In this document: piece after piece, positions 2,076 to 60,039 of the stretch | Layout: every line of letters begins with the position of its first letter | How positions within the stretch are numbered: position 1 is the first letter of the stretch | Assembly: GCA_964368835.1 (NCBI GenBank) | Contig: CAYJCZ010000005.1 | Location: 43,695 to 107,694, forward strand | Reading direction: 5' to 3' | DNA length: 64,000 bases | From: an uncultured Candidatus Saccharibacteria bacterium | Lineage (GTDB): Bacteria; Patescibacteriota; Minisyncoccia; Phycocordibacterales; UBA6065 | Position numbers and translations under genes: made by a program | Notes under the pieces: model-generated | Told to the model about the DNA's origin: nothing | Seen by the model: the letters and a program-made list of their open reading frames with translations, nothing else | Databases searched by the model: none

Positions 2076-2183
2076 ATAATTTCTTGAAGATTTTAAATTG
2101 CTAATTTGATATAAATCTTCTGCGTTAAAAGTTCCGAAAGTCAGACACTAGGGTCACCAAGAGTAATTTGTTAATATATATTT

Positions 2184-2501: not shown

Positions 2502-2524
2502 TGTAAAGTTGTTCTTATCAACAA

Positions 2525-2597: not shown

Positions 2598-2599
2598 CA

Positions 2600-3775: not shown

Positions 3776-3777
3776 TT

Positions 3778-3806
3778 TTGTAAAAAAGCCTTATTTTTGC
3801 TATATT
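3778..3806 (+). promoter_or_regulatory. Candidate sigma70-type promoter for valS (TTGTAA-17nt-TATATT), giving a near-leaderless transcript
   Basis: -35 'TTGTAA' at 3778-3783, a 17-nt spacer, and -10 'TATATT' at 3801-3806. The ATG is at 3817, so the leader would be at most about 5 nt. Confidence 0.35.
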
Positions 3807-3816
3807 TTCCGTACCT

Positions 3817-34659: not shown

Positions 34660-34804
34660 AGGGAAAATATTACCATATAACACAATACTGTCTGCAACCT
34701 TTTTGACCTGTAATGTGTTATAACTACTACGATTTATGAAAGAGACTTGGAAAGCACCATTAATCCGCCTTTTAAGGCGTTCAGAGAAATACACCAAGAC
34801 AGAT

Positions 34805-35992
34805 ATGGTGTATTTCATGAAAGGTAATTTCTGGCTCACCGCGAGCAGGGTTGTTTCGGTAGGAAGTGGCATGATTCTCACCATTGCCTTCGCGAACCTA
34901 CTGTCGAAAGAGGTATTCGGCACATATAAGTACGTGATCGCTATCGCGGGATTTTTCACAGCATTCTCACTCTCCGGCTTGAGCCTTGCTTTAAGCAAGT
35001 CTGTAGCTCAGGGCAAACAGGATATCGTGAGGTCATTGTTTGGAACGAGCGTAAAATGGAGCATACCTGCAAGTATCGCCGCCCTTCTCGCAGCGCTTTA
35101 TTATTTCTATAAAGGAAATGTTGAACTCGGGACCGGCCTCGCACTCATCGCAGCATGCACACCTTTCCTTAACGGCTTCGGACTCTACAAAGGACTTCTG
35201 AGCGGTAAGGGAGATTTTAAGTCACTTGCTGTATGGAGCATACCGAGAAACATAATACCAATCATCGCTCTCGTAACGACGCTTCTCGTAACGAAAAGCA
35301 CAATTGCGATCGTCGTCGTGTATTTCATCTCTAACTTCATCGCAGGCTGGGCAACATACGCATGGTCATTACATAAGTACAAGATCGGAAACTCGCAAGA
35401 TGGAGTTAAAGAAACAGTTGAGTACAGTAAGCATCTCAGCTTTCTTGCTCTCTTCATCCAAGCCTCGAGCCAAATCGATCTCCTTCTTCTTTGGCACTTC
35501 ACGGGTCCAGCAGAGCTCGCCATATACACCTTCGCTCTTGCTCCTGTCCGTGAGATGAGGAACTTCTCAGAGAATTTTTTTCCTATAATATTCCCGAAAT
35601 ACGCGACCAAGACCGTAGAAGAAATCAGAATGAGCATGGGACTACGCCTACGACAAATGGGACTGGTCTCGATCGCAATCGCCGCAGTATATATTCTTGC
35701 TGCGCCTCTTATATTTAAAATTTTCTTTCCTCAATATCTCGCCTCAGTATTCCTGAGCCAGCTTCTAGCGCTCGCTATTGTCCTTCAACCGAAAGGACTC
35801 ATAGAAACCATGTTCCTTGCTCAAGGTGAGATAAAAAAGAGATACACTGTAGTAATTTTGACGAACGTTACAAAGATCGCCTTACTCTGCGTCCTGATAC
35901 CTACTCACGGGATACTCGGCGCAGTCATAGGAAGCATCGCGACTGAAATCGTTTCCACTATAATTATGTATATCGCCTATAAAAAGAAATAG
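34805..35992 (+). CDS. Polysaccharide/oligosaccharide flippase (Wzx-like, MOP superfamily)
   Basis: About 12 TM helices with the typical Wzx N-terminus 'NFWLTASRVVSVGSGMILTIAFANLLSKEVFGTYKYVIAIAGFF'; the start was chosen at 'MVYFMKG'. Confidence 0.65.
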   Translation: MVYFMKGNFWLTASRVVSVGSGMILTIAFANLLSKEVFGTYKYVIAIAGFFTAFSLSGLSLALSKSVAQGKQDIVRSLFGTSVKWSIPASIAALLAALYYFYKGNVELGTGLALIAACTPFLNGFGLYKGLLSGKGDFKSLAVWSIPRNIIPIIALVTTLLVTKSTIAIVVVYFISNFIAGWATYAWSLHKYKIGNSQDGVKETVEYSKHLSFLALFIQASSQIDLLLLWHFTGPAELAIYTFALAPVREMRNFSENFFPIIFPKYATKTVEEIRMSMGLRLRQMGLVSIAIAAVYILAAPLIFKIFFPQYLASVFLSQLLALAIVLQPKGLIETMFLAQGEIKKRYTVVILTNVTKIALLCVLIPTHGILGAVIGSIATEIVSTIIMYIAYKKK

Positions 35993-35994
35993 TC

Positions 35995-36549
35995 ATGGAA
36001 ACAATCAAACTGAGAATAAATAAAATTCTCGCGATATTCGATGTATCCCTGTCCCGTATCGACCGAAGCGAATACACATTTAGAGACGATCTCCATATAA
36101 AAGCAATCGTAGCGGCCAAGGAACCCAGAGGAAAGCGCATCCTTGATATCGGATCAGCGCGCGATTCATGGACAAAGGAAAAGTTCGGCAAAGATAACGA
36201 AGTCATATCATTCGATCTTGAAGGTGATGTTGATGTCAAAGGATCTATTCTCTCTGCCCCATTTGAAGACAAATCATTTGATCTCGTCTTTTTCTTTGAG
36301 ACCCTAGAACATGTCGACAATCCTTTTCTCGCCATACAAGAGATACGAAGAATACTTAAACCGAAAGGAATGCTCGTAGCCAGCGCGCCATTCATATACG
36401 AGCTCCATGGCGAAGATTATGGCGATTATTGGCGTATTACCAGACAGGGTTGGCAGAAGCTGCTTAAAGAATTTAAGGACATCGAAGTATCTTCTATGGG
36501 AAGACACGAATTGAAGCCTCATCATTATTTCATTAAAGCTATAAAATAA
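35995..36549 (+). CDS. Class I SAM-dependent methyltransferase (Methyltransf_11-like)
   Basis: 'ILDIGSARDSW' motif I, 'FDLVFFFETLEHVDNP' and 'RILKPKGMLVASAP'. It is a paralog of the 53872..54501 gene. Confidence 0.7.
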   Translation: METIKLRINKILAIFDVSLSRIDRSEYTFRDDLHIKAIVAAKEPRGKRILDIGSARDSWTKEKFGKDNEVISFDLEGDVDVKGSILSAPFEDKSFDLVFFFETLEHVDNPFLAIQEIRRILKPKGMLVASAPFIYELHGEDYGDYWRITRQGWQKLLKEFKDIEVSSMGRHELKPHHYFIKAIK

Positions 36550-36553
36550 AGGT

Positions 36554-38311
36554 ATGTGTGGGATTATAGCCATAGCAGGAAAAGGTATAGAAAAGGTGCA
36601 CGACGATAAGGTGGAAGCCATGCTCTCCTGCCTTGCTTTGCGTGGACCAGATGACCAGGCATTTGCGCGATTTCCCAGTGCCCTAGTTGGTCAAACGCGC
36701 CTCGCCATTGTTGACTTGGCGGGCGGTCATCAACCAATGAAGGATAATGCAAATCCTTACACCATTGTGTTTAACGGTGAAATCTATGGTTACAAGGATT
36801 TGCGATCCGATCTCGAAAAAAAGGGTCACAAATTCACCACGCACTCTGACACCGAGGTAATTTTGAAATCGTATGCAGAGTACGGTAAGGATTGCGTGAA
36901 ATATATTGACGGCATGTTCATGTTTGCCATTTATGATGAAAAGAAGGATGAACTTTTCATTGCACGGGACAGATTTGGTAAGAAGCCTTTCTACTACACA
37001 AACCACGAAGGACTCTTTATTGGTGCGTCAGAAATGAAATCCTTGTTCGCTCTGAAACTTTTTAAAGGCAAGATAGATCCTGAGGCTCTCGAGGAATATT
37101 TAAGACTCATGTATATTCCCCCTTACATGACGATATATTCAAATATATATACGTTGCCGCCGGCACATGCGGGAATTGTGAAAAACGGTGTACTGGAATC
37201 ATGGAGATATTGGCACCTAGAAAAGAAGGGAATTTCAATATCATATGAAGACGCAAAGAAGAAAGTAAAAGAGCTCTTTGATGATGCGGTTAAAAAAAGA
37301 ATGATTGCCGATGTTGAAATTGGAGCCCTCCTTTCTGGTGGAGTTGATTCAACGATCGTCACACAGTACGCCCAGAAGTATTCCAAAACCCCCATCAAAA
37401 CTTTTTCCGTCGGCTATGAAGGAGCAAAAAACGAGCTTCCTTATGCCGCAGAAGCATCAAAAAAGATAGGAACAGATCACCACACCATCGATGTTCACAC
37501 CGAACTCTCTACAGAGCTTGAAAACATAATCACCTATATGGATGAACCTCATGGAGATTCCTCAAATTTCCCTCAGCACCTCATTTCCGGAGTTGCATCA
37601 TCAAAAGTTAAAGTTGCATTAACCGGAGACGGAGCAGATGAAATATTTCTAGGATATGGTTGGTACCAGAAATACTGGCATACACCTCGGTGGAAACCAT
37701 CGAGAATCTTTGGTAATCCTTTTTCTGCCGCTCAAAAAGCAATCACCATATTTGATACTAGTGAGAGAAAGAGGCTTTTGGTCAATCCAGTTGAAAACAG
37801 AAAAAACGTATATGAAAAAGAAATTCTAGATCCGATCAAGGATCCCATCTCTAAAATAAATGCTTTTGACCTCAATATTTATTTGCCGGGCCAGCTCCTT
37901 TCAAAAATAGACAGGACCAGCATGATGCATTCGCTTGAGATACGTTCGCCGTTTCTCGATACTGCGCTTGTGGAGTTTGTATACAATCTGCCCCTTGAAT
38001 ATAAAATGACAGAGTCTAAAAACAAGATTATCCTCAAAGATATCCTGTCAGAAACTTTTCCGGATGAATTCGTTAATAGACGTAAACAAGGTTTCGGTGC
38101 ACCAGTCGAACGATGGCTTAAAGAAGCAAAAATGCAGAAAAGCATCGATGTAATCCTAGACGAGCGAAATAGGATGTTTAATTACATCGACAGAACAAAG
38201 GTATTTGAAATCTACAATGATTTCTACGGTAAAAGTATCGGCGCACAGAAGCTATGGCTCCTAGTCTGCCTTGCCTTGTGGTTTAGAACGCACTCCGACG
38301 TAATCGCTTAG
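36554..38311 (+). CDS. Asparagine synthase (glutamine-hydrolysing) family amidotransferase
   Basis: 'MCGIIAI' with the Cys2 nucleophile, and 'SGGVDS' PP-loop. In this setting it is probably a sugar-uronate amidotransferase (WbpS-like) rather than housekeeping AsnB. Confidence 0.85.
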   Translation: MCGIIAIAGKGIEKVHDDKVEAMLSCLALRGPDDQAFARFPSALVGQTRLAIVDLAGGHQPMKDNANPYTIVFNGEIYGYKDLRSDLEKKGHKFTTHSDTEVILKSYAEYGKDCVKYIDGMFMFAIYDEKKDELFIARDRFGKKPFYYTNHEGLFIGASEMKSLFALKLFKGKIDPEALEEYLRLMYIPPYMTIYSNIYTLPPAHAGIVKNGVLESWRYWHLEKKGISISYEDAKKKVKELFDDAVKKRMIADVEIGALLSGGVDSTIVTQYAQKYSKTPIKTFSVGYEGAKNELPYAAEASKKIGTDHHTIDVHTELSTELENIITYMDEPHGDSSNFPQHLISGVASSKVKVALTGDGADEIFLGYGWYQKYWHTPRWKPSRIFGNPFSAAQKAITIFDTSERKRLLVNPVENRKNVYEKEILDPIKDPISKINAFDLNIYLPGQLLSKIDRTSMMHSLEIRSPFLDTALVEFVYNLPLEYKMTESKNKIILKDILSETFPDEFVNRRKQGFGAPVERWLKEAKMQKSIDVILDERNRMFNYIDRTKVFEIYNDFYGKSIGAQKLWLLVCLALWFRTHSDVIA

Positions 38312-39255
38312 CGTTTCTTGCCTACTATTTTCTTCCCTTTCCTCTTTACTGCTGAAATGAGAGCTTTGAATGCTGCGTAGCCACCTAGTTCTGGACGTGT
38401 CCACTCTGAGTACCATTCAGGCATATGTGAGTGTTTTGCTGACAAATCTCGGTGATGATTATTTGAATGATGCATTCCTTCAAGCAAATCTACATTGCGA
38501 CCATTTTTCTTGTGCCATGTGAGAAATGCATGAGAATCCTTTGGAAGACAGTGACCGTCATATGCTTTTCCATAGCGGAAATATGCTTTTCGTTCAAAGA
38601 AGAAATCCATAAGCTTTTCAGTCCTCTGAAGACTCTCTTTATCCTTAGGTAGAGCAATAGCATTTCCAAACTCATTAACAAAAGCGATTCGGAGTGCGTT
38701 CCAAATATTTGAAAGGTATTTAAGATAAGACGCTTCTTCTGGAGTACCATGAAATACTTTGACTGCCCGTCGATCCCAGATATCAAAGAAGCTCGGCCAC
38801 TTTTTTTCACTTTTCTTACCCAAAAGGAAATAGTGAGGATTCATGCACTCTTCCACGGCTTTCTTTTCGTGCAAAAATTCTGGAACATAGAAATCAAACT
38901 TAAGTCCACCAAGATGTCCCGGCAAAATCGTTGATCGCAAAATCACACCTCCCTTTGCACCCTTAAGTGAATCAAGGGCTTTTTTAATAAGTGAAATATC
39001 CTGCTCTCCATCAGGCAAAACTCTGTCTCCAACAGAAACGATGTACCAAGTGTCAGCACCATCCTCATCAAGAACTTTTTTTAGTCTTTTAAGCTTCTTG
39101 TATGCCTCCTTATATTTATCTTCGTATTTCAGAGTCGGCGTACCCGGATCAAAGTAGCAGACATTATAGCCAGCATTAGAAAGCGACAGCGCATTCGCCT
39201 GTCCAACCCATCCAAAACCAACAATCACAACGGTTTCTTTCGTGTTTGGTTTCAT
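38308..39255 (-). CDS. Nucleotide-sugar dehydrogenase family protein (UDP-glucose/GDP-mannose dehydrogenase-like, C-terminally short)
   Basis: Rossmann 'VVIVGFGWVGQANA' and a catalytic-Cys region 'DGHCLPKD' (canonical GGSCFPKD). The protein is only 315 aa, so the C-terminal UDP-binding domain is largely missing. Confidence 0.5.
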   Translation of the reverse strand: MKPNTKETVVIVGFGWVGQANALSLSNAGYNVCYFDPGTPTLKYEDKYKEAYKKLKRLKKVLDEDGADTWYIVSVGDRVLPDGEQDISLIKKALDSLKGAKGGVILRSTILPGHLGGLKFDFYVPEFLHEKKAVEECMNPHYFLLGKKSEKKWPSFFDIWDRRAVKVFHGTPEEASYLKYLSNIWNALRIAFVNEFGNAIALPKDKESLQRTEKLMDFFFERKAYFRYGKAYDGHCLPKDSHAFLTWHKKNGRNVDLLEGMHHSNNHHRDLSAKHSHMPEWYSEWTRPELGGYAAFKALISAVKRKGKKIVGKKR

Positions 39256-39313
39256 AATTTCTATTTAAGTACCGAAATGCTATCATTTAAAAACTACATA
39301 ATCAACGACCAAC

Positions 39314-40315
39314 ATGGCACAGAAGAAAAAGGCGCTTATTACCGGAGGAGCAGGTTTCGTGGGTTCCCATCTTGCCAAAAGGCTCGTAAATTCAGGATAC
39401 GAAGTCGTCATCGCTGACAACTTCTTTAGAAGTGAAAAAGATGCTGATCTCAAGGAGCTTCTCGCGCACCCATCAGTCACTATGATTGAAGGAGACCTCA
39501 CCAAAGCAGAATCATGGGACAAACTCGGTAAAGGATATGATCATGTGTATCACCTTGCGAGCATAAACGGCACAAAACTTTTCTATGAGATTCCTCACGA
39601 AGTTTTGCGCATTGGTATCATGTCTGCATTCCATGTACTTGATTGGTTTCGTGAAAAAAATGGAAAGAAAGACGCGAAAATTCTCTTTACTTCATCAAAT
39701 GAAGCTTATGCGGGTGCGCTCGAAGCGTTTGGCAAACTTCCGATTCCAACACCAGAGAATGTACCGCTAGTAATTGCTGATACATACAACGCCCGATGGT
39801 CATATGGCGGTCAAAAACTTATCGGCGAGCTTCTATTCATCCATTACGCAAAGGCATACAACTTTCGAATGTCGATTGTGCGCCCACACAACTTCTATGG
39901 ACCACGAGAAGGATACCTTCACGTTATCCCTGAAATAATTGAGCGTGCACGGCAAAAAACAGATCCATTTCCAATTTTTGGTTCAGATGACATGCGATCA
40001 TTCTGCTATATCGATGATGCTGTTGAGGCAATACAAGCTGTAATGGAATCAACCAAAACAGATGGTGGTACATATCACATCGGTAGCAATGATGAGATCG
40101 TTATCAAAGATCTCATTGAAAAGATTTTCACAATAATGAATTGGCACCCAGATAAGCTTGATATCAAATCTTCACCTGCTGGTAGCGTAAAGCGTCGGTT
40201 GGCAGATGTATCGAAAATAAAAAAAGATACTGGTTGGGAGGCAAAAACATCGCTCGATGAGGGCCTTAAGAAAATAGTTGATTGGTATCTGAAAAATCCA
40301 AAGCCGACAAAATAA
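39314..40315 (+). CDS. NAD-dependent epimerase/dehydratase (extended SDR, UXS/4,6-dehydratase-like)
   Basis: 'ITGGAGFVGSHLAKRL' and a catalytic 'YGGQK' (YxxxK). Confidence 0.8.
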   Translation: MAQKKKALITGGAGFVGSHLAKRLVNSGYEVVIADNFFRSEKDADLKELLAHPSVTMIEGDLTKAESWDKLGKGYDHVYHLASINGTKLFYEIPHEVLRIGIMSAFHVLDWFREKNGKKDAKILFTSSNEAYAGALEAFGKLPIPTPENVPLVIADTYNARWSYGGQKLIGELLFIHYAKAYNFRMSIVRPHNFYGPREGYLHVIPEIIERARQKTDPFPIFGSDDMRSFCYIDDAVEAIQAVMESTKTDGGTYHIGSNDEIVIKDLIEKIFTIMNWHPDKLDIKSSPAGSVKRRLADVSKIKKDTGWEAKTSLDEGLKKIVDWYLKNPKPTK

Positions 40316-40350
40316 AAATACCGGGATTAATCCCGGTATTTTTATTTTTT
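40312..40350. terminator. Bidirectional intrinsic terminator between the epimerase gene (+) and the DegT gene (-)
   Basis: Hairpin ataccggga-ttaa-tcccggtat flanked by an A-run and a T-run. Confidence 0.6.
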
Positions 40351-41442
40351 ACCCTTGTAAAAATTCTTTATCTCAGTGCAAACAGTCATTGTCTCTTCGT
40401 CTGTCATGGTAAACGCAGATGGCAGCCATAATGCTTGTGGCACCAGTTTTGTAGAGTTAGGAAAATTTTTGTCAGATACTTTGTATGCAGGTTGTCTGTG
40501 AAGCGGAAACCAGAATCGACGACAATCAATATTTCGCTCTCGTAGGAATGCGTCGAGTTCATCCCGCTTCTCAACGAGCACATCTGTCCATTGCGGAATT
40601 TCGCCCTTCTTTGTATCACACTCAAAGATTTCAAATCCCTTTATCCCCTCCAATTCCTTCTTGTAGATCTCATGGATCTTCTTCATTCGTTCAAGGCGCT
40701 TATCGAGCATTGCCATCTGACCGAGTGCTACAGCAGCCTGCAGATCCGTAAACTTGAAGTTAAAGCCAAGTGTTGGATGTACATCATCACCGCCAGTAAG
40801 CTTCCCTTCAACACCCTGATTTCGAAGTTGTCGCATACGGATATAGAGCTTTTCGTCATTTGTCACAACAAATCCTCCCTGACCTGATGTTATGGTTTTA
40901 TTTGGTGAAAGAGAAAAACATCCCGCATTACCAAATGTTCCCAGAAACTTTCCATCCTTTTTTGAACAGAATGCTTCCGCCGCATCCTCTACTACAACAA
41001 GTCCTTTCTTCTGTGCAAAAGAAATAACGTCAGCCAGGTGTTCTGACCTGCCACTTACATGAACAGGAATAATTGCTTTAGTTTTCTTGGTGACGGCTTT
41101 TTCTAGGGCCTTCATATCAAACATCAAAGACTTGTCGACATCTGCAAACACAGGCGTTGCTCCTGCGAGTGTGACCGCATTAGCGGTAGCGATGTAGGTT
41201 ATATCTGGAACAATGACTTCGTCACCATGACCAACACCGAGTCCCTTGAGAGCCATGAATATTGCTACTGTTCCTGAATTTGTTGCAAGAGCATATTTTG
41301 CTCCAAGACGCTTGGCTACCTCGGCCTCAAACTTTTCGGTCATAGGACCTTGATTCGTGTAGTTATTATCAAGAACCTGCTTTATGAGAGGATATTCTTC
41401 GGTTCCGATCTGTGGCATCCACCAAGGAATTTTTTTGTTCAT
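40342..41442 (-). CDS. DegT/DnrJ/EryC1/StrS family PLP-dependent sugar aminotransferase
   Basis: 366 aa, with a '...DAAEAFCSKKDGKFLGTFGNAGCFSLSPNKTITSGQGG...' region carrying the conserved Lys. Confidence 0.85.
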   Translation of the reverse strand: MNKKIPWWMPQIGTEEYPLIKQVLDNNYTNQGPMTEKFEAEVAKRLGAKYALATNSGTVAIFMALKGLGVGHGDEVIVPDITYIATANAVTLAGATPVFADVDKSLMFDMKALEKAVTKKTKAIIPVHVSGRSEHLADVISFAQKKGLVVVEDAAEAFCSKKDGKFLGTFGNAGCFSLSPNKTITSGQGGFVVTNDEKLYIRMRQLRNQGVEGKLTGGDDVHPTLGFNFKFTDLQAAVALGQMAMLDKRLERMKKIHEIYKKELEGIKGFEIFECDTKKGEIPQWTDVLVEKRDELDAFLRERNIDCRRFWFPLHRQPAYKVSDKNFPNSTKLVPQALWLPSAFTMTDEETMTVCTEIKNFYKGKK

Positions 41443-41444
41443 AC

Positions 41445-42704: not shown

Positions 42705-42783
42705 GGCTTAGATTATAGGTTTTCTGCGTTCCTGCTTTAGAATAATGCGTCAAGTATAGCTTGAAATCCCGCCTTTTTTTAGA

Positions 42784-42812
42784 TTGACAAAGATAGATGC
42801 GGGTGCTTTTAT
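42784..42812 (+). promoter_or_regulatory. Candidate promoter for the HD-domain gene in the divergent intergenic region
   Basis: TTGACA at 42784-42789, a 17-nt spacer, and TTTTAT, which is a weak -10. Confidence 0.25.
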
Positions 42813-42848
42813 CAATACCACAAGATTGATCAATTACACTCCATCCTC

Positions 42849-44347: not shown

Positions 44348-44469
44348 AGAAGTATCTTTAAGTATACAGAATTGAGGTTTTTGGTCGAGAAACTCGCCAA
44401 TGTATATAATTTGACGCACCATATCCTTAAAGCTAGAATCAGCATACGTTTAAATAACTCCAACTCCCA

Positions 44470-45345: not shown

Positions 45346-45349
45346 AGTA

Positions 45350-47352: not shown

Positions 47353-47353
47353 C

Positions 47354-49044: not shown

Positions 49045-49067
49045 AAAAGCCACCTTGTTAGGTGGCT
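49042..49067 (-). terminator. Intrinsic terminator for the 49076..49810 gene (weakly bidirectional)
   Basis: Hairpin agccacc-ttgtta-ggtggct, with TTTTTTAAT following on the minus strand. Confidence 0.45.
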
Positions 49068-49075
49068 TGAAATGA

Positions 49076-49810: not shown

Positions 49811-49831
49811 TAAAAACCAATAAATTGCAAA

Positions 49832-52736: not shown

Positions 52737-53875
52737 ATATGCATATATGATACTATGCGCGCTGCCCTTTTATCCCATGTGTGATCAAGTACTTTTGAAT
52801 AGGCTTTTTGTGCCAAGGCTTCGTACTTGCTTGAGTTGCTTACGACTTCTTGGATTGCTTGCGCGAGCGCCTGTGGATCATCTGGTATGACAAGATACGC
52901 TGAGTGCTCATCCACAATCTCACGAATCGATGGGATGCTCGACGCAACAATAGGCCGTCCGCTTGCCATATACTCGTAAAGCTTCATTGGTGAAGTGTAG
53001 TAGGCTGATATTTTTTCTTTTGCCGTGTTTGGAAGTACGAGCACATCTGCCGCTTTTTGCCACAAAGGCATTTCGTCATGAGGCTTAAAACCAACAATTG
53101 AAATGGTGGACTCCTGATACTTTTGCTTAAATGCTTCGACATCTATAGGAGTTCCTCCCACAAATATCACTTGGTAGTCATTTTGTAATAACTTTGCAGC
53201 TTGAGCGAGAGTATCAACACCCTTCCAGCCATAAAGATGTCCAGTGTAGACAGCGATTTTCTTTGAAGGTGGAAGAGAAAGCTTTTTTCGGGCGTCTTCC
53301 TTTGAAATAGGTATGTCGAATGCCTTTATATCAACTGCGTTTGGTTCATATAAAAATTTTGTTTGAGGCACTTTTGGAAAGAGTTTTTTTGCCTCTTCGA
53401 GCTTCCATCTATTATGAATAAGGATCCATTTCATGCGTGAGAGAAACTTTCCAAAGAAAGTAATTTTGCTTTCAGGGAAATCATGCATTTCGTAAAAACA
53501 GTTCTTGAAATCCCAAGATAAAAGAAAAAGTGGTAATGATTCGTTTGAATACATTACGTCCTGCTTGCCTGCGTGCTTCATCATAAAGAAATAGACAGAT
53601 GTTGAGAAAGCTAAGAAGCTCGTCCAGAAAGCAAAACGGCGAAGTATTGGCACGTTGTAGATATCGATTGTCTTTACGTACTCGATAGTAAAGTTTTTTT
53701 CTACAGAATAAAAAGTGTATGGGTCATCTTTTATAATCCCCTTGCGGGCTGGGACGACGAGAGTGACATCAAAGCCTTGGCGGACAAAGGCTGCGGCGCT
53801 TTTTGCGGCAAAAAGCGCCGCAGCTTTCTCACTCGGAAACCTCCCATGAAAAATGAGGAAAAGTTTCTTTTTCAT
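52733..53875 (-). CDS. Glycosyltransferase family 4 (GT-B)
   Basis: 'VLPNTAKEKISAYYTSPMKLYEYMASGRPIVASSIPSIREIV' EX7E motif. Confidence 0.75.
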   Translation of the reverse strand: MKKKLFLIFHGRFPSEKAAALFAAKSAAAFVRQGFDVTLVVPARKGIIKDDPYTFYSVEKNFTIEYVKTIDIYNVPILRRFAFWTSFLAFSTSVYFFMMKHAGKQDVMYSNESLPLFLLSWDFKNCFYEMHDFPESKITFFGKFLSRMKWILIHNRWKLEEAKKLFPKVPQTKFLYEPNAVDIKAFDIPISKEDARKKLSLPPSKKIAVYTGHLYGWKGVDTLAQAAKLLQNDYQVIFVGGTPIDVEAFKQKYQESTISIVGFKPHDEMPLWQKAADVLVLPNTAKEKISAYYTSPMKLYEYMASGRPIVASSIPSIREIVDEHSAYLVIPDDPQALAQAIQEVVSNSSKYEALAQKAYSKVLDHTWDKRAARIVSYMHI

Positions 53876-54501
53876 TTTTTCCCTAGAAATATATAGCCCA
53901 ACGGATACCTTCCCTTTACATTTGGTTGAATTCGAAACGTCACTTCATCCAAAAGGAGAGCTCCATAAGCACCAATCAATCGAAGGGGCTTTGGAAATGA
54001 AAGCATCATGCTATTAAATGCAGCCGTAAATGGCCCCTTACTAATCGCCTTTACAGCTACTTCCTTAAACCCGATGTCGCCCAGTATTCGTGCAAGTGCC
54101 TCATGCGTATATCTAAAATAATCTTTAGGATCTGGATGATATTGAATAAAAAATGGCACAAAACCAACAAGAGTTCCTTTTGGTTTTAAAATACGCCTCA
54201 TCTCCCCAACTAAAAAACTGTGATTATACACATGCTCAAGAACATTCGCGCACACAACAGTATCCAGTGCATTATCCGAAAACGGCAGTTTATCTTTCTC
54301 AAAATCGATGGGGGTGATACTTCCGTCGACTGGAGTAATTGAAATCACACTATCCTTCTTAAAGTAGTTAAAATAATCTGGATTTCTTCCACCACCAATA
54401 TCGGCAACCTTTCCATAAATCGTATAGTCCCGAAAGCCTTCGTCCATAAGAATTCTCATCATGGTCTGTCCTTGCCACATTTTTTTAAAATATGTGCTCA
54501 T
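53872..54501 (-). CDS. Class I SAM-dependent methyltransferase
   Basis: 'VADIGGGRNPD...LDTVVCANVLEHVYN...RILKPKGTLVGFVP'. Confidence 0.7.
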   Translation of the reverse strand: MSTYFKKMWQGQTMMRILMDEGFRDYTIYGKVADIGGGRNPDYFNYFKKDSVISITPVDGSITPIDFEKDKLPFSDNALDTVVCANVLEHVYNHSFLVGEMRRILKPKGTLVGFVPFFIQYHPDPKDYFRYTHEALARILGDIGFKEVAVKAISKGPFTAAFNSMMLSFPKPLRLIGAYGALLLDEVTFRIQPNVKGRYPLGYIFLGKK

Positions 54502-54506
54502 AACTA

Positions 54507-55142
54507 TTATTTTGGAGTTGCTGTGATGACTAGTGTCTCAACAAACTTTGGTGTAAATCGAGAAAAGAAGGCATACAACACATTGAGAAATTTCTTCTTT
54601 ATGCTCTGCTTGTATTCAACACCCAACGAATAGAGAAAATCTACAGATTCAACTTTCCAACCATTTCTTTCCAAAAGTACTGAGAGTGTCTTCGAATTGA
54701 AGTAGCACGTGTGCTCCCGATTAACCGTCGGCTCTGTCTTTGAAAGTTTTTCGGCAAGGTTAAAAAGATTGAATGTATTTGGAGTTGAAAGCACCAATCG
54801 TCCACCAGGCTTTATGTGCTTCTTTGCTTGAACAAGAAATAAGCCAGGATTAGATAGGTGTTCAATAAGATCTCCGGCAAAAATAACATCAAATTTCTTA
54901 TTGATTGAAAAATTTTCTGCATCACCCTTGAAATAATTTTGTTTCGGCCCAGGAACAAGACTTGGGTCATATTCAAGATCAAAGGCAAACACTTCTTGTG
55001 CACGAGCTCTCAAAATTTTATGAACCCAGTTTTCATCTTTCGGACTTACCCCTTGGCCCCAAAAACCCACATCAAGCACGACATCCTTAGAAGTTACACA
55101 GGTATTAATGAGTTCTTGTTTGTTTTTAAAGATTTTATTCAT
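54507..55142 (-). CDS. Class I SAM-dependent methyltransferase
   Basis: 'VVLDVGFWGQG...FDVIFAGDLIEHLSNP...IKPGGRLVLSTPN'. Confidence 0.7.
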   Translation of the reverse strand: MNKIFKNKQELINTCVTSKDVVLDVGFWGQGVSPKDENWVHKILRARAQEVFAFDLEYDPSLVPGPKQNYFKGDAENFSINKKFDVIFAGDLIEHLSNPGLFLVQAKKHIKPGGRLVLSTPNTFNLFNLAEKLSKTEPTVNREHTCYFNSKTLSVLLERNGWKVESVDFLYSLGVEYKQSIKKKFLNVLYAFFSRFTPKFVETLVITATPK

Positions 55143-56164
55143 TGCATTGAAACTATAAGATGCTCTGCGAGTTTTTCCAAACTGTGATGAGCTTCAGTGA
55201 TGGCGCGCAGACTTTTACCTGCAGCATCCTTGTCCTTTCGAGCAAGCAGTAATTGAAGCTTGTTTGAAACATCCTGAGTCTCGGCATTACAAATAAACGA
55301 ATCGTCAACGAGTGTTCGCAGGTTTTCATTCGAAGCAAGAATCATCGATTCACATGCAGCCGCTTCAAAGATTGTCTTGTCGTACATTCCCGACGAAGAG
55401 AGGTTCACGAAAATCTCGTGCTCACTATATACCTTCGGAGTTGAATCGTTAGGAATGCCTGAAAAAAAAGTAACCTTATCAGACAATCCCCAGTCCTTTG
55501 ATTTTTTCTTTAAGTCCTCAAGATACTCTTTATCCTTAGGAAGCGGATCACCGTAAAACGATGCGTTGAATGAAATTCCTTTATCTGAGATTTCTTTCAA
55601 AGCCTCGAGAAGAACGTGTGGCTTTTTAACTGGTGCAACACGACCCAAGAAAAGTATTGATGCTGGTTTACGAACCACATCTGTCTGCTTCCTAAAAAAA
55701 TGAGTGTCGATTCCAACCGGCATAAGAACTGTCTTCTTATACTTTGCTGTAAAAGAAAACTTTGAAGTGCAAAATACTTTTGTGCAAAATGCTGCAGCGA
55801 TATCCGTGAGCAGATTTCCTGCATGGTGATTGCGCCACATATATACACGCTTGCCTAAAAGCTTCCACAACAGTCCTCCCAAGAGCACATATTCTTGATT
55901 CATATGCACGAGCACTGCATCGTACTCACTCTTCAAGCTCGTGATATATCTGAAAAAATTCTTAACGTACAAAAATCTTGATTCCTTCTTCTCCTTACCG
56001 AGTGAGTAAACTTTGACATTGGCTGGCAGTGACGTGACCCCCTGCTTAAGACAAATCACAGAAACTGAATCTACTTTCTTTGAAAACTCACTTACCCAAC
56101 GATGAAAGAAGCCGAGCACCGGATCATTCTTATCAATAACCTGCGTGATAACGAGGAGTTTCAT
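55139..56164 (-). CDS. Glycosyltransferase family 4 (GT-B)
   Basis: C-terminal 'SSSGMYDKTIFEAAACESMILASN' and a typical GT4 length. Confidence 0.65.
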   Translation of the reverse strand: MKLLVITQVIDKNDPVLGFFHRWVSEFSKKVDSVSVICLKQGVTSLPANVKVYSLGKEKKESRFLYVKNFFRYITSLKSEYDAVLVHMNQEYVLLGGLLWKLLGKRVYMWRNHHAGNLLTDIAAAFCTKVFCTSKFSFTAKYKKTVLMPVGIDTHFFRKQTDVVRKPASILFLGRVAPVKKPHVLLEALKEISDKGISFNASFYGDPLPKDKEYLEDLKKKSKDWGLSDKVTFFSGIPNDSTPKVYSEHEIFVNLSSSGMYDKTIFEAAACESMILASNENLRTLVDDSFICNAETQDVSNKLQLLLARKDKDAAGKSLRAITEAHHSLEKLAEHLIVSMQ

Positions 56165-56589
56165 TGTTTCTTAAATATGAAAAGCCTGTAGATAAAGAAA
56201 CAACCTGAGGCAACAAGGAGTATTGATGCGATTTGAGATGGAAGATAATGCAAACGTAACTTTTCGACAAAAAAGTATACGAGCGCAGTTGTGGCACACA
56301 AACTCGCAAAATAAAGAATCGAGTAATATACAAACTGTCTTGTCGCGTGTGTTTCATCCTTGTCCTCAAAGGTTACGTACTTCTGAAGAAGAAAACGAAC
56401 AACGAAAGCAATCGTCATTGCGAAAATATGTGCTGAGATGTAGTAAACGTTAACATATGCCACTAAAACGTTTGCCAAAATGACCTCAATTGCCGCAGCC
56501 GTGCCTCCCGAAAATACATATCGTATAAACGTAGATTTATGGAATATATCGAGCCCCCACTGTACCGGTGCTAAAAGGAGTTTTGCCAT
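56161..56589 (-). CDS. GtrA family polysaccharide-biosynthesis membrane protein
   Basis: 142 aa with 4 TM helices, 'RYVFSGGTAAAIEVILANVL' and a C-terminal 'RLFIFKK'. Confidence 0.7.
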   Translation of the reverse strand: MAKLLLAPVQWGLDIFHKSTFIRYVFSGGTAAAIEVILANVLVAYVNVYYISAHIFAMTIAFVVRFLLQKYVTFEDKDETHATRQFVYYSILYFASLCATTALVYFFVEKLRLHYLPSQIASILLVASGCFFIYRLFIFKKQ

Positions 56590-56597
56590 AGCCTCAA

Positions 56598-57701
56598 TTA
56601 TAGCAGAGCACGCTCTATATCGGCCCTAAAAGCCTCTAAATAGGCCTGTTTTGAGGCATATGGGTACTTATAGTCCTTATTCCTAACCATGCATGAAAAG
56701 GCCTTTTTAAGGGCTTCTGAGAGGCCTCTTAGGTCCCCTGGGGTCACAATACATTCTTCGCTTGCAAGCAGGGGTGCAATACCAGCATCGGTTGCTACAA
56801 GCATCGCACCAGAAGCATGCGCCTCAAGCATCGAAAGTCCGTACCCTTCATACAGCGATGATGAGATAAACACATCGCATGTCTTCATATATGAAATCAA
56901 AGTTTTCTGATCCGCCCAATCTTCTACAATTACTGCACCTTTAAAACTTTTTGCTTTGGTTAAAATACCTGGCAAAAGTGGACCCGATCCAACAATGACA
57001 AGTCCTGAGTCGGAATATGCTTTGTGTGTGATATTAAATGCTCGAAGTGCTGTATAAATATCTTTCTCTTTTGTGAATCGTGATGCAATGAGCGCTATTT
57101 TTTTAAATTGAGGATATTTCTTTGCAAGATCAACAGTCACAGGACTTGTTCGAATTGCATCTAGATCTGCAAATATAGGCAACACAGTAACTTTGCTTTG
57201 ATATCGCGGAGCAAGCGAAGTCTTTATTCGCTGTGACACAACGCGAATCGCATGGCTCTTTTTTAGAATTTTTCTTGATAAGAAAATACGAAATTTATTC
57301 AAGATGCCCTGCGCAAAGTAAAAACTATTAAGATCTGTATGTATCTGGGTATGTAAATGAATGCCTGTTTGTTCAGAGAGATATAGTCCCACTATTCCCG
57401 CTTCAAAAGGATCCTGAGTTGTTATAACCGTATCCTGCACTGAGAGACCCGACACTGAAATAACCTCCCTTCCGATTTTCTTAGCATCTGGAATATATGA
57501 AAACTTTGATGACGAGTTAGTTGGATACACACGGACATTATGCCCAATCGAAATCACAGAACCTGCATGCAAACTTTTTTTTGTGAATAAAACTATATGT
57601 AATTCCTTAAAAAGCTTTCCGTACTCTTCCATGCGTAGACGTACAGAAGAACCCTCTTCGAGGATTTTCTGATCGGTCGATATCATGAGTACTTTTATCA
57701 T
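56598..57701 (-). CDS. Glycosyltransferase family 4 (GT-B)
   Basis: 'SSSLYEGYGLSMLEAHASGAMLVATDAG'. Confidence 0.7.
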   Translation of the reverse strand: MIKVLMISTDQKILEEGSSVRLRMEEYGKLFKELHIVLFTKKSLHAGSVISIGHNVRVYPTNSSSKFSYIPDAKKIGREVISVSGLSVQDTVITTQDPFEAGIVGLYLSEQTGIHLHTQIHTDLNSFYFAQGILNKFRIFLSRKILKKSHAIRVVSQRIKTSLAPRYQSKVTVLPIFADLDAIRTSPVTVDLAKKYPQFKKIALIASRFTKEKDIYTALRAFNITHKAYSDSGLVIVGSGPLLPGILTKAKSFKGAVIVEDWADQKTLISYMKTCDVFISSSLYEGYGLSMLEAHASGAMLVATDAGIAPLLASEECIVTPGDLRGLSEALKKAFSCMVRNKDYKYPYASKQAYLEAFRADIERALL

Positions 57702-58810
57702 AACGATTTGAGTTCTTTTTCGAGGGTGTCGAGCATCGCCTCATCGGTAAATTTGCCAACAGCTTTCTTTGCTTCTTTTGCAATCATGAAGGCAATCGCT
57801 CGCTCAGACAAAAATCCTTTGATCGCTTCAATAAATGCGCCCTTATCATTTGGAGGAAGGAGTGCGCCACTGCGACCATGCGTAATCACTTCTGGATTTC
57901 CACCTATATCTGTTGTTACAACCGGTGTACCGATCGCCATAGTTTCAAGAATCTGATGAGAGAGGCCCTCGTACGACGTGTTGAGTACAAATACATCGGC
58001 CGCCTTTATATATTCAAAAAGCTCAGCCTGTGAAAGCCTGCCAGCAAGTCGGACCGCACCTGCCAGATTTAGTTCCATAATCCTTTTTTCGAGCTGTGGT
58101 CTTTCTGGACCGTCGCCCACGATGACAAGATTTGCATTGGGTAGCGATTCGATAATCTCAGGCATCATTTCAATCACTTCCATCATTCCTTTCCACGGAA
58201 CAAGTCTTCCGGCCGTAACAATAACTTCTCCCGACAAAGAAAGTCTTTTACGAATATTTGGCTTGAGTGCCTTTGTTACCGATACATGAAAACCGTTATA
58301 TATGACAGAAATCTTTTCCAAGGCGATGCCCCACGCAGAAACAATTCCTTTGAGATACTTGGACGGCACAACAATACGGAAAGAACCCTCAGCAACATAC
58401 ATCTGGATTCTCTTAAGGAGTCTTACCTGCCACGGATATTTTTCATGCTCTTTCACAAACTGATCGAGCGTATCTGATACGTTCCATCTCTGAGATCCTT
58501 GCTCCCAGGCATAGTCACCAGCAATACGAAGTACGAATTTTTTCTTTCGTACTTGAGCAGCAATAAGGGCCGGCAAACCTACTGAAACTGGATCCAGTGC
58601 ATAAATAAGATCAACATCCGGAGCCTTTCTTAAAAGTTCAAGAAAATACAAAAAATGTCGAATAATCTTTGGTTTGTCTAAATAATCGCCAAATGTGGCG
58701 ATCTCGACATCTATACCTCTTTTAGGTAGTTCGTCATATAAAAGTTTCGAATATGTAGCAGGTCCTCCAATCTGTGGCGGGAATATGCCGGTAGCTAAAA
58801 GGATTTTCAT
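57698..58810 (-). CDS. Glycosyltransferase family 4 (GT-B)
   Basis: 'NTSYEGLSHQILETMAIGTPVVTTDIGGNPEVI'. Confidence 0.8.
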   Translation of the reverse strand: MKILLATGIFPPQIGGPATYSKLLYDELPKRGIDVEIATFGDYLDKPKIIRHFLYFLELLRKAPDVDLIYALDPVSVGLPALIAAQVRKKKFVLRIAGDYAWEQGSQRWNVSDTLDQFVKEHEKYPWQVRLLKRIQMYVAEGSFRIVVPSKYLKGIVSAWGIALEKISVIYNGFHVSVTKALKPNIRKRLSLSGEVIVTAGRLVPWKGMMEVIEMMPEIIESLPNANLVIVGDGPERPQLEKRIMELNLAGAVRLAGRLSQAELFEYIKAADVFVLNTSYEGLSHQILETMAIGTPVVTTDIGGNPEVITHGRSGALLPPNDKGAFIEAIKGFLSERAIAFMIAKEAKKAVGKFTDEAMLDTLEKELKSL

Positions 58811-60039
58811 TCGCCCATTATATCAAAGACCTTCTTTTTCATATCACTGGAAACTATGTTCCAATCATATTTTTCCTTCACCATACTCATTGCATTATCA
58901 ACAATCTCGTCGCGTAACACTTTGTCGTGAAGGTACACCTCAACTTTCCGAGCAATATCTTCAGGTGAATGAACTTCGCAAAAAAGACCCGTCTCTTTAT
59001 TCTTCAAGAAATCAACAATACCTCCGACAGGTGTGGCGATTACAGGTAGTCCTGCAGCCATCGCCTCTATAAATGAATTTCCAAAACCTTCAGATAGTGA
59101 AGGGCGAATAAAAATGTCAGAGACCTTAAGATACTTTGGCATATCAGCGTGCGAAACATACCCAAGGAAGATTACGCGATCAGAAACACCTTTATCTGTT
59201 GCCAGCCTCTTAAGTTCCTCAAGTTGATAGCCTACACCGAGCACAAGCAGCTTTACATTTTTTGGTAAAAATTCGAGCGATTCGATGATATCGCCAACAG
59301 CATTCTTAACTACCAGCCTTGAGGTTGTTATAAGGAAAATATCCCCTGGTTCTTTATGGAGATTCCTTTTAAGGGTCTCAAGCTCCGCTCCAGAATACTC
59401 ATACGTAAAGCGTGCTATATCAACGCCATTTGGCACCACTTCGACCGCGGCCGTCGCACCCATATCATTTGCAAAATCTGCAAGATACTTTGAAATAGTC
59501 TGAATTTTCTGTGCATTTCGAAAAATCATTTTAAAAATTGAATACACAAGAAACTTCACAGGAATTTTTACAGGACCAATGATTACTTTGAAAGATTGAT
59601 TCTTTATATACTCAAGCGGATCACCCTCTTGAAGGGTAAGAATAAAAGGCACATTCATATGAAAAAGTTTAAAGAAAAGGGCGCCGAATCCCGAGTAGTT
59701 TGCCATCATGCCCCATATGCCATCAAACTTTTTCTCACTGTGCAGATGCGTCGCTTTTATCACCGCAAGGAATGGATACGCGTATTTATTAAGGTGTAAG
59801 TACCACGGCAGTGAATCCGCCGAATCTTTACTTTTGCCCGTCCAACCAACACGATGAACCATCACGTTTCCAATCTTCTCTTCTTTGGGGAGATTCTTAT
59901 CGAGTCGAAGTGCGATCAAATGAAATTCAAAATCTTCCTGATCCATTCGATCAGTTATTTCCTTAATCGCGATTTCTGCTCCGCCGATAAATCGCGGATA
60001 GTATACGAATGAAAATATGAGTACTCGTTTTGCTGCCAT
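58807..60039 (-). CDS. Glycosyltransferase family 4 (GT-B)
   Basis: 'RPSLSEGFGNSFIEAMAAGLPVIATPVGGIVDFL'. Confidence 0.8.
   Translation of the reverse strand: MAAKRVLIFSFVYYPRFIGGAEIAIKEITDRMDQEDFEFHLIALRLDKNLPKEEKIGNVMVHRVGWTGKSKDSADSLPWYLHLNKYAYPFLAVIKATHLHSEKKFDGIWGMMANYSGFGALFFKLFHMNVPFILTLQEGDPLEYIKNQSFKVIIGPVKIPVKFLVYSIFKMIFRNAQKIQTISKYLADFANDMGATAAVEVVPNGVDIARFTYEYSGAELETLKRNLHKEPGDIFLITTSRLVVKNAVGDIIESLEFLPKNVKLLVLGVGYQLEELKRLATDKGVSDRVIFLGYVSHADMPKYLKVSDIFIRPSLSEGFGNSFIEAMAAGLPVIATPVGGIVDFLKNKETGLFCEVHSPEDIARKVEVYLHDKVLRDEIVDNAMSMVKEKYDWNIVSSDMKKKVFDIMGE

Follow-up and report, generated by a model that had tools for sequence, protein, structure and literature searches.

A stretch of 64 kb from an uncultured Candidatus Saccharibacteria bacterium (assembly GCA_964368835.1, contig CAYJCZ010000005.1, positions 43,695-107,694), referred to below as the window, carries at 34736-60039 a locus for the biosynthesis of a surface glycan; all positions given are those of the window. 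We consider it about 70% probable that this is a lineage-conserved, modular surface-glycoconjugate locus of Paceibacteria/Parcubacteria-type members of the candidate phyla radiation (CPR), in which three modules would cooperate: a predicted cassette for a branched-chain amino sugar, a set of soluble glycosyltransferases and methyltransferases with a Wzx-type flippase, and a membrane branch of GT2, GtrA and PMT_2 proteins. Most CPR bacteria, or Patescibacteria, have never been grown in culture; their genomes measure about 1 Mb and they presumably live attached to host cells, so that surface chemistry is probably central to their biology.

A clade-wide locus with a fixed backbone and variable cassettes

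The interval 34736-60039 is filled by 25 consecutive open reading frames (ORFs) with gaps of -32 to +144 bp, the ORF map being about 99% coding, and 23 of the 25 gave glycan-related profile matches. Families were assigned by Pfam scans, NCBIfam profiles and PDB sequence searches. The original prediction for this region, a surface-glycan biosynthesis locus of 25 kb, is borne out by these scans: profile HMMs back almost every assignment, the Wzx, GtrA, AsnB, short-chain dehydrogenase/reductase (SDR), DegT, C-methyltransferase-like and Fmt-like calls were all upheld by Pfam, and the expected five or more S-adenosylmethionine (SAM)-dependent methyltransferases correspond to five class-I SAM methyltransferase domains (at 35995, 47354, which is a DUF268 protein, the C-terminal half of 49832, 53872 and 54507). 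By Pfam the locus holds nine firm and two sub-threshold glycosyltransferases; three GT2 and five GT4 proteins stand as proposed, one GT4 and the GT11 fall below the Pfam threshold, and the GT39 call was over-specific, its gene having only a generic PMT_2 family match and no PDB sequence match. The division into two arms holds for the second, a uniform, translationally coupled minus-strand run (49076/49832-60039) whose genes mostly overlap by 4 bp, and not for the first, as the supposed plus-strand arm at 34.7-49.0 kb is mixed and contains four minus-strand genes (38308, 40342, 41445 and 43571). Over 40319-53574, Logan assemblies from three independent runs agreed with the window at 100% identity, which rules out an assembly artefact.

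A metagenome scan with the PMT_2 protein, which returned 46 loci (36-59% identity), was followed by tblastn of all locus proteins. A recurrent backbone, seen in dozens of CPR contigs, starts at a VirD4-like gene, proceeds through a variable number of GT4 genes, GtrA, a further GT4, PMT_2 and GT2/methyltransferase to the GT11-like, DUF268, GT2, GT4-like and GT2 genes, and continues with a sugar cassette, AsnB, Wzx and a Wzy_C-TPR-MurB-SecA block (TPR, tetratricopeptide repeat). Backbone amino acid identity across CPR contigs is 36-78%. Contig Ga0210043_1000029 (L025 plus L027) shows the gene order of the window throughout, at ∼50-78% aa identity; the backbone is largely collinear in L029-L031, L035, L037 and L061, and six of the genome loci preserve the Wzy_C-TPR-MurB-SecA block in synteny. 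The best-conserved neighbour is the VirD4-like gene (62-81% aa), found in many CPR contigs at this same end of the locus. Four backbone loci (L043, L052, L060 and L061) are missing the amino-sugar cassette, and AsnB directly follows the GT4-like gene in them.

Variation is also apparent at short range. A close relative (Logan SRR23592399/405; SecA 96% aa identity) is collinear in the housekeeping flank at 82-86% nt identity and over 36639-55028 at 80-83%. No nucleotide match to this relative was obtained for 34838-36639 (comparison with L021/L019), where the Wzx gene and the methyltransferase gene next to it are replaced; its Wzx is 35% identical to that of the window despite the 96% identity in SecA, which indicates allele replacement. 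The relative further carries a five-gene cassette encoding a carbamoyltransferase, a true GT11, a cupin-like ORF, a second C-methyltransferase and a short SDR, and two single-gene indels distinguish the two loci, the ORF at 49076 and the methyltransferase gene at 53872.

Such differences between close relatives, in Wzx, the five-gene cassette and two single genes, are what might be expected of a horizontally acquired, strain-specific island of the kind represented by classical O-antigen or capsule islands, and the region had originally been described as an island. The slightly lower GC content inside the locus (0.414, as against 0.428 in the left flank and 0.428-0.450 outside) points the same way, as do the distant relatives L003, L009 and L011, which hold other genes beside Wzy_C-TPR. 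Against this, no integrase, transposase or tRNA gene was found at the locus borders, the GC values are after all similar, identity to the close relative is alike inside (80-83% nt) and outside (82-86%) the locus, and many CPR contigs keep the same gene order all the way from the VirD4-like gene to SecA (36-78% aa identity). We consequently regard horizontal acquisition as very unlikely and abandon the term island in that sense. Collinearity together with similar identity inside and outside argues for vertical inheritance with local recombination: the locus is vertically inherited and clade-wide, and it is diversified by local cassette exchange. Comparison across related genomes thus yields a fixed backbone with variable cassettes and with presence or absence of single genes, and swapping of cassettes within this backbone would be the source of glycan diversity.

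A different cassette was seen at the corresponding chromosomal place, upstream of Wzy_C-TPR-MurB-SecA, in a Candidatus Taylorbacteria contig (L007; MHRT01000004, 525-4132). It comprises a true GT11, a 128-aa ORF, a canonical GDP-mannose 4,6-dehydratase (458 bits) and a paralogous C-methyltransferase, with an ABC transporter following, and suggests a pathway to a GDP-6-deoxy-3-C-methylhexose of the virenose or evalose kind.

A predicted cassette for a C-methylated, N-formylated amino sugar

One enzyme of the cassette is a nucleoside-diphosphate (NDP)-sugar 3-C-methyltransferase of the TylC3/TcaB9/KijD1 family (41445-42704, minus strand). It matches the Pfam families Methyltransf_13 (Zn), Methyltransf_23 and Methyltransf_14 at 70, 57 and 141 bits, in a three-domain arrangement (Zn-binding at the N-terminus, then SAM, then Methyltransf_14 at the C-terminus), displays the CxxC...CxxC motif, and has full-length PDB matches to 4rv9 (1e-74, residues 13-418), TcaB9 (7e-61) and 5t64 (5e-59). 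A C-methyltransferase accompanies a short dehydrogenase and an SDR in all nine contexts examined.

The short dehydrogenase (38308-39255, minus strand; 315 aa) resembles NDP-sugar dehydrogenases, with partial Pfam and NCBIfam UDPG_MGDP_dh matches over the N-terminal and central domains. It is considerably smaller than characterised members of the UGDH/GMD family (390-480 aa), as the C-terminal nucleotide-sugar-binding domain, UDPG_MGDP_dh_C, gave no Pfam match and is consistently absent from the family. The protein had been called truncated; instead, it belongs to a conserved CPR family. We found 518 homologues; among the best 120, identity is 52-99% and length 305-340 aa, and all named members of the family are Patescibacteria. 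The GxGxxG motif, Lys179, Asn183, Cys236 (in GHCLPKD) and Asp240 are invariant in 36 homologues, and the 518 homologues and invariant catalytic residues rule out a pseudogene. An AlphaFold (AF2) model (pLDDT 91) has UGDH-family proteins as all of its top 50 PDB neighbours (TMq 0.70, TMt ∼0.5), spanning only the N-terminal and central domains of the UGDH structures, or about half of each target. Several CPR genomes encode the short dehydrogenase fused C-terminally to a class-I SAM methyltransferase (∼545 aa), with the same SDR next to it (L024, 8001-9638; L075, 7001-8647; also P0176, P0189, P0193, P0197, P0200, P0204, P0205 and P0209).

Its partner is an extended SDR (39314-40315, plus strand; Pfam Epimerase/GDP_Man_Dehyd), whose orthologues adjoin the short dehydrogenase in every context and in which TSSNEAY, RWSY..K and RPHNFYGPR are invariant. 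Glu130, likewise invariant, occupies the site at which dehydratases and decarboxylases have their catalytic Glu, and the position of the RmlB Asp is held by an invariant Asn; the residue roles are those of RmlB and ArnA. The highest NCBIfam scores were for dTDP-glucose 4,6-dehydratase (144 bits) and LegB (135 bits); the UDP-4-keto-pentose synthase model gave 79 bits and the ArnA model 62 bits, and all scores were far below the family cut-offs. The top PDB match was archaeal RmlB when the SDR was searched as a single sequence, and 8vr2 when it was searched as a profile. The SDR is predicted to form a 4-keto sugar, as either a decarboxylase or a 4,6-dehydratase.

Two enzymes could then act on the keto sugar. 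A pyridoxal phosphate-dependent sugar aminotransferase of the DegT/DnrJ/EryC1 family (40342-41442, minus strand; Pfam 336 bits) matches 7b0m (3.5e-63), GDP-perosamine synthase (1.7e-53) and ArnB (1e-45) in the PDB, and its best characterised relatives are C-4 aminotransferases. Next, an Fmt/ArnA-N-like N-formyltransferase (43571-44422, minus strand; Formyl_trans_N 102 bits) probably starts ∼25 codons further in, giving a 258-aa form that agrees with the 258-aa members of its cluster. It matches the ArnA N-domain (1.3e-27), WbkC (9e-25) and the Met-tRNA formyltransferase Fmt (3e-28) about equally well. Its triad is intact, with Asn131, His133 and Asp169 aligned to N102, H104 and D140 of ArnA. 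Gene context supports an NDP-amino sugar rather than Met-tRNA as its substrate, since the gene belongs to the cassette with DegT and the C-methyltransferase, and its slot is filled by a hexapeptide acyltransferase in the orthologous loci L025 and L072. Further exchanges affect the same cassette: DegT is replaced by a Gfo/Idh/MocA reductase in L024, L074 and L075, and a cupin is added in L023 and L073. The acyltransferase and reductase swaps form the pattern expected for alternative fates of a single NDP-3-C-methyl-4-keto intermediate. Within the locus family the N-formyl version is uncommon and confined to the window and its close relative.

From these gene families, their architecture, conservation and variation, we infer substrates and an order of steps as follows. 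The short dehydrogenase, SDR and 3-C-methyltransferase would generate an NDP-3-C-methyl-4-keto sugar, which DegT would transaminate at C-4 and the Fmt-like enzyme would N-formylate. If dehydrogenase and decarboxylase act in succession, as in ArnA or CalS8/CalS9, the product would be a 4-formamido-4-deoxy-3-C-methyl pentose; by a 4,6-dehydratase route it would be the 4,6-dideoxyhexose equivalent, resembling kansosamine. Because the linkage of dehydrogenase and SDR is obligate, we weakly favour the first route, the second being nearly as likely. The expectation of a methylated, N-formylated amino-sugar glycan is reasonable, with methylation predicted at both C and O.

The 4,6-dehydratase route deserves to be set out as an alternative in its own right. 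It posits that the SDR leads to a 4-formamido-4,6-dideoxy-3-C-methylhexose, akin to N-acyl-kansosamine or N-formylperosamine, and that the short dehydrogenase serves another sugar. The NCBIfam ranking of the SDR and its archaeal RmlB match agree with this, as do the proximity of DegT to GDP-perosamine synthase and the WbkC match of the formyltransferase. Moreover, an NTP_transferase gene lies between short dehydrogenase and SDR in L074, where it directly precedes the SDR as RmlA precedes RmlB, and the paralogous C-methyltransferase of L007 stands beside a true GDP-mannose 4,6-dehydratase. The replacement of the RmlB acid/base Asp by an invariant Asn speaks against it, however; the dehydratase scores are far below family cut-offs, with UDP-xylose synthase (UXS) almost equal, and it would not explain why the SDR goes with a C-6 dehydrogenase-like enzyme in nine of nine contexts. 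We consider this version of the route less likely than not.

The AsnB-type glutamine-dependent amidotransferase (36554-38311, plus strand; Asn_synthase 294 bits plus GATase_7; TIGR01536 478 bits) bears on a further alternative, since its juxtaposition with the dehydrogenase had been taken to imply a uronamide sugar. Under that scheme the dehydrogenase would yield a hexuronic acid, the SDR might be a 4-epimerase of the WbpO/WbpP or TviB/TviC type, AsnB would form the uronamide, and a dehydratase encoded elsewhere would supply the C-methyltransferase and DegT with their 4-keto sugar. A dehydrogenase, an epimerase and AsnB produce GalNAcAN in this manner in Pseudomonas aeruginosa O6 and in Francisella. 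The Francisella cluster also holds a formyltransferase, WbtJ (PMC3952080). In the window, L019, L025 and L072 the AsnB and dehydrogenase genes adjoin each other, converging and overlapping, and the epimerases WbgU and WbpP are among the PDB matches of the SDR (1e-20 to 1e-25). This neighbourhood is nevertheless not constant: AsnB is near the short dehydrogenase in five of nine contexts, is not near it in L023, L024, L074 and L075, and occurs without it, beside GT4-like or GT2 genes, in the four backbone loci that are missing the cassette. The constant partners of the dehydrogenase are the SDR and the C-methyltransferase (nine of nine), which weakens the uronamide inference. In addition, the SDR retains the invariant Glu130 of dehydratases and decarboxylases, and the dehydrogenase is devoid of a nucleotide-sugar-binding domain. 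A uronamide is therefore unlikely in our view, and AsnB looks like an enzyme of the backbone with a carboxylate substrate of its own.

The cassette also contains an HD-domain protein resembling metal-dependent phosphohydrolases (42849-43574, plus strand; Pfam HD, E=1.4e-3), which had gone unnamed in the original prediction and is present inside the cassette in L019 and L025 as well. Each named one of its 75 homologues is from the CPR. His21, His36, His68, His122 and Asp139 are invariant and Asp37 is nearly so, and the nearest PDB structures to its AF2 model (pLDDT 96) are HD hydrolases of the YpgQ type, which are nucleotide pyrophosphohydrolases. The protein may be a nucleotide or NDP-sugar (pyro)phosphohydrolase.

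A more far-reaching proposal is that short dehydrogenase, SDR and 3-C-methyltransferase constitute an undescribed branched-chain aminopentose route, consisting of C-6 oxidation, 4-oxidative decarboxylation, C-3 methylation, transamination and N-formylation, with Arn-style delivery by the GT2(-methyltransferase), GtrA and PMT_2 proteins described below. On this view the dehydrogenase, having no third domain, may work in a complex with the SDR, or may act on a non-nucleotide, lipid-linked substrate. In its entirety we think this sequence of events rather improbable. If true, the variability of the cassette would be the CPR counterpart of serotype variation and would be relevant to recognition by hosts and phages.

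Predicted assembly, export and modification of the glycan

Eight or nine soluble glycosyltransferases of GT2, GT4 and GT11-like types, with several SAM O-methyltransferases, would build a lipid-linked, methylated oligosaccharide; AsnB would probably amidate a carboxylate, Wzx would flip the product, and the Wzy_C-TPR protein would ligate it to an acceptor, or both polymerise and ligate it. The Wzx-type flippase (34736-35992, plus strand; Polysacc_synt 81 bits) has at least eight transmembrane (TM) segments and is followed by a class-I SAM methyltransferase (35995-36549, plus strand; Methyltransf_11/23). Beyond the sugar cassette, a plus-strand block whose gene order is kept in many CPR loci (44470-49044) consists of a GT2 (44470-45345, Glycos_transf_2), a GT4-like protein (45350-46501; 26.4 bits, sub-threshold at a cut-off of 27), a second GT2 (46498-47352, Glycos_transf_2), a DUF268 methyltransferase (47354-48118, Pfam) and a GT11-like protein (48118-49044). 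The last scores 21.3 bits with Glyco_transf_11, below the cut-off of 23.9; it carries GGxxANQL, HxRxGDY and SxFS motifs collinear with those of a true GT11 enzyme. PDB sequence searches with the GT4-like and GT11-like proteins, and with the PMT_2 protein, gave no match.

The minus-strand run encodes, apart from the membrane branch, a GT4 (52733-53875, Glycos_transf_1), two methyltransferases (53872-54501, absent in the relative L019, and 54507-55142; both by Pfam), a further GT4 (55139-56164, Pfam) and three consecutive GT4 proteins (56598-57701, 57698-58810 and 58807-60039; Glycos_transf_1 60, 133 and 125 bits), the orthologues of which adjoin the VirD4-like gene in many loci. Between the two blocks lies an ORF of 244 aa (49076-49810, minus strand) that had likewise not been named before. 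It has a TTG start, is rich in Cys and Trp and gave no Pfam match at E≤5; it is absent in L019, 51% identical (aa) in L020 and ∼30% in L036, a presence/absence polymorphism among near-identical relatives, and could be either a gene in decay or a small, novel accessory gene.

The Wzy_C protein with C-terminal TPR repeats (32317-34998, minus strand; Wzy_C 84.6 bits; ∼13 TM segments) lies just outside 34736-60039 and belongs functionally with the locus. It is syntenic with MurB-SecA in L003, L005, L007, L009, L011, L012, L021, L025 and L057, and the locus has no other multi-TM candidate for a Wzy or ligase. Its true start is probably downstream of the annotated TTG, because the ORF overlaps the start of Wzx and an orthologue has 824 aa. 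Since Wzy_C is common to WaaL, Wzy and PglL/PilO, which are inseparable by sequence, we regard the protein as a candidate ligase or oligosaccharyltransferase.

The third module would modify the glycan, or a protein, outside the membrane. Its GT2 domain is fused to a SAM methyltransferase (49832-51388, minus strand; Glycos_transf_2 127 bits plus Methyltransf_11) and has as best NCBIfam matches AglJ (97 bits), PgfS, ArnC and a dolichyl-phosphate (Dol-P) hexose transferase, all below cut-offs. The adjoining GT-C protein (51357-52736, minus strand; ∼10 TM segments) is of the PMT_2 type (42 bits, cut-off 26.1) and matches only one NCBIfam entry, an uncharacterised Leptospira family. The two genes overlap by 32 bp and are adjacent in ∼24 related metagenome loci and in the close relative. 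In the same gene run is a small membrane protein of the GtrA family (56161-56589, minus strand; GtrA_DPMS_TM 64.6 bits, cut-off 26.1; four TM segments), a candidate flippase for a polyprenyl-phosphate sugar. By its protein families this trio would be an extracytoplasmic glycosylation system of the Gtr, CsbB-GtcA-YfhO, Ppm-Pmt or Arn type: the GT2(-methyltransferase) would make a polyprenyl-phosphate monosaccharide, GtrA would aid its passage across the membrane, and the PMT_2 GT-C would transfer the sugar to the glycan or to a protein on the outer side.

Alternatively, the locus might specify a conserved, wall-attached secondary polymer resembling teichoic acid, teichuronic acid or a rhamnopolysaccharide, and not a protein glycan, with the trio decorating it in the manner of the Firmicutes proteins CsbB/GtcA/YfhO. 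In favour of this are its location beside MurB, the presence of MurJ and another TM+TPR protein in the window, the clade-wide conservation of the backbone, the teichuronic acid proteins TuaC, TuaG and TuaH among the best NCBIfam similarities of several of the glycosyltransferases, and a Glyphos_transf gene found in L003 at the corresponding place. All Tua matches, on the other hand, are far below cut-offs; TagF/TagB-type, LCP-ligase and ABC-exporter genes are absent from the locus, and a combination of Wzx with Wzy_C is just as characteristic of protein O-glycosylation of the PglL type. A decorated wall polymer is hence conceivable but doubtful. A peptidoglycan or teichoic-acid operon proper, the identity against which the original prediction had wished the region to be checked, can be rejected, as 34736-60039 contains no Mur ligase, MraY, Glyphos_transf/TagB/TagF, LCP or TagGH gene and MurB merely flanks it.

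Several observations weigh against a complete three-module surface-glycoconjugate locus as we propose it. Among the ∼50 ORFs of the window we found no priming phosphoglycosyltransferase (Bac_transf, Glycos_transf_4 or MraY/WecA), which may lie elsewhere in the genome, and within the 64 kb there is no sugar-1-phosphate nucleotidyltransferase, dedicated Wzy polymerase or chain-length regulator, so that the pathway as seen is incomplete. The original prediction had suggested a relation to S-layer or pilin glycosylation or to host attachment; a search of the window for class-III (pilin) signals by regular expression and for an S-layer gene yielded no acceptor, and the glycan could be attached to protein, to a wall polymer or to lipid. 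AsnB passes the generic threshold for asparagine synthases and could in principle be metabolic. The short dehydrogenase does not have the domain by which all its characterised relatives bind the nucleotide sugar, and the SDR is nearly equidistant, within a few bits in PDB searches with the single sequence and with a five-sequence profile, to RmlB, GalE-like enzymes, UXS and 8rdg, a GDP-sugar 4-epimerase (PMC12171764). Finally, the NCBIfam matches of the glycosyltransferases are all far below family cut-offs.

Organism and chromosomal surroundings

The organism had been thought CPR-like, which the relatives of MurB and SecA support, as do the HD and short-dehydrogenase families with their exclusively CPR named members. 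The nearest genomic relatives of MurB (31290-32309, minus strand) are 47-51% identical (aa) and come from Candidatus Taylorbacteria, from Parcubacteria/Paceibacterota and from metagenome-assembled genomes labelled Saccharibacteria; SecA is 57-72% identical to its counterparts in the same groups. Many of the related contigs are from groundwater metagenomes of the Hainich type, and the organism is taken to be an ultra-small groundwater bacterium. By tblastn, MurB is only ∼69% identical to that of the close relative (L021, 8974-9993), as compared with 96% for the flanking SecA and 91% for Wzy_C-TPR, which may reflect local recombination or a fast-evolving gene.

The left flank comprises the Wzy_C-TPR protein, MurB, SecA and a VTT/DedA-family membrane protein, with glycolytic and translation genes beyond. 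The DedA protein (28199-28759, minus strand) adjoins SecA and is syntenic in L021 and L025. Proteins of this family have been implicated in the recycling of undecaprenyl-phosphate, a role that would fit a nearby glycan locus with a high demand for lipid carrier. On the right, a VirD4/TraG/HerA-like ATPase of 631 aa (60098-61993, minus strand) is followed by a DUF4015 glycoside-hydrolase-like protein (62788-63894, minus strand).

Further to the left, MurJ (11382-13067, minus strand) directly adjoins a second multi-TM protein with C-terminal TPR repeats (13085-15499, minus strand; 804 aa), a pairing that mirrors MurB and Wzy_C-TPR. The two TM+TPR proteins align in their TPR parts only, and we rejected paralogy between them on this ground. 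At the start of the window, a reverse transcriptase of 293 aa (71-952, plus strand; RVT_1 85 bits), part of an element cut by the window edge, is followed by a 260-aa ORF (1293-2075) and tRNA-Val. Direct repeats of at least 40 nt are absent from 1-4000, and accordingly no template/variable repeat pair of a diversity-generating retroelement was seen there.

Significance

As a type, the system is already well known in bacteria, being a Wzx-type surface-glycan locus with a three-component GT-C branch. In the literature library that we searched there was no description of such glycan loci in the CPR, an absence that applies to that library and is not proof of novelty. The parts that could hide new biochemistry are the CPR-wide trio of dehydrogenase, SDR and C-methyltransferase, and the HD protein; the two CPR-restricted families among these, the short UGDH-like dehydrogenase and the HD protein, can be tested biochemically. 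If the genome is of typical size, the ∼25 kb that this clade devotes to the locus, at a constant position from the VirD4-like gene to Wzy_C-TPR-MurB-SecA, amounts to several percent of it. Its diversification proceeds along recognisable axes, with a formyl or an acyl group, an amino or a hydroxyl group, and whole cassettes that are either present or missing, and the locus could serve as a strain-typing marker for these organisms.

Comparison with known systems

The repertoire had been judged unusually rich, an assessment that is weakened by comparison with known clusters such as the 27-kb protein O-glycosylation cluster of Tannerella forsythia, which encodes glycosyltransferases and methyltransferases (PMC6120980). 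This cluster and the slg S-layer glycosylation clusters of Gram-positive bacteria share with the CPR locus their size, the polycistronic arrangement of glycosyltransferase and methyltransferase genes with a Wzx-type flippase, a species-specific methylated oligosaccharide as product (predicted for the CPR locus), and gene content that varies between strains or species at a fixed locus. The CPR locus adds the 3-C-methyl/4-formamido cassette, the GT2-GtrA-PMT_2 branch and Wzy_C-TPR.

With the Arn pathway for L-Ara4N (PMC12690121; PMC12650200) it has in common the enzyme types, that is, a C-6 dehydrogenase-like protein, an SDR, DegT, an ArnA-N-like formyltransferase, an ArnC-like GT2 and an ArnT-like PMT_2 protein, as well as the logic by which a formylated amino sugar is handed to a polyprenyl-phosphate carrier. 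The locus is not an arn operon, however, as neither an ArnD-type deformylase (Polysacc_deac_1) nor ArnE/F (an EamA/SMR pair) was found in it; a gene of the deacetylase family is present in the distant locus L023. GtrA takes the place of ArnE/F, the 3-C-methyltransferase and HD protein are additions, the dehydrogenase is without the C-terminal domain, the SDR may or may not be a decarboxylase, the similarities are below family cut-offs, and the CPR cell has no lipid A.

The wbt locus of Francisella tularensis likewise unites an NDP-sugar dehydrogenase, an SDR, AsnB, DegT, a sugar N-formyltransferase and Wzx. There, WbtE/F are dehydrogenase and epimerase, WbtH is the AsnB protein and WbtI the DegT protein. 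WbtJ, Wzx and Wzy have been described (PMC3952080). In contrast to the CPR locus, wbt encodes a dehydrogenase of full length but neither a C-methyltransferase nor O-methyltransferases nor a GT-C branch, and the linkage of AsnB to the dehydrogenase is inconstant across the CPR loci.

Branched-chain and amino sugars of natural products and pathogens offer the closest parallels to the cassette. Over its full length the C-methyltransferase is homologous (1e-59 to 1e-74) to TylC3, TcaB9 and KijD1 (PDB 4rv9, 3ndi, 5t64), and the order of dehydrogenase, SDR and aminotransferase mirrors that of CalS8/CalS9/CalS13 (PDB 4xr9, CalS8). The virenose of Coxiella and the kansosamine of mycobacteria are known sugars of this class, kansosamine being the precedent for an N-acylated, O-methylated 3-C-methyl-4-amino sugar. 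These pathways differ in using full-length dehydrogenases or canonical 4,6-dehydratases, mostly for antibiotics or lipopolysaccharide, and we know of no characterised CPR example.

Lastly, the joint encoding of a GT2 synthase-like protein, GtrA and a GT-C enzyme is shared with GtrA/GtrB/GtrC, CsbB/GtcA/YfhO, Ppm1/Pmt and Pgf of Streptococcus mutans. Compared with these three-component systems, the CPR GT-C protein is only generically of the PMT_2 type, and the CPR GT2 stands apart through its fusion to a SAM methyltransferase.

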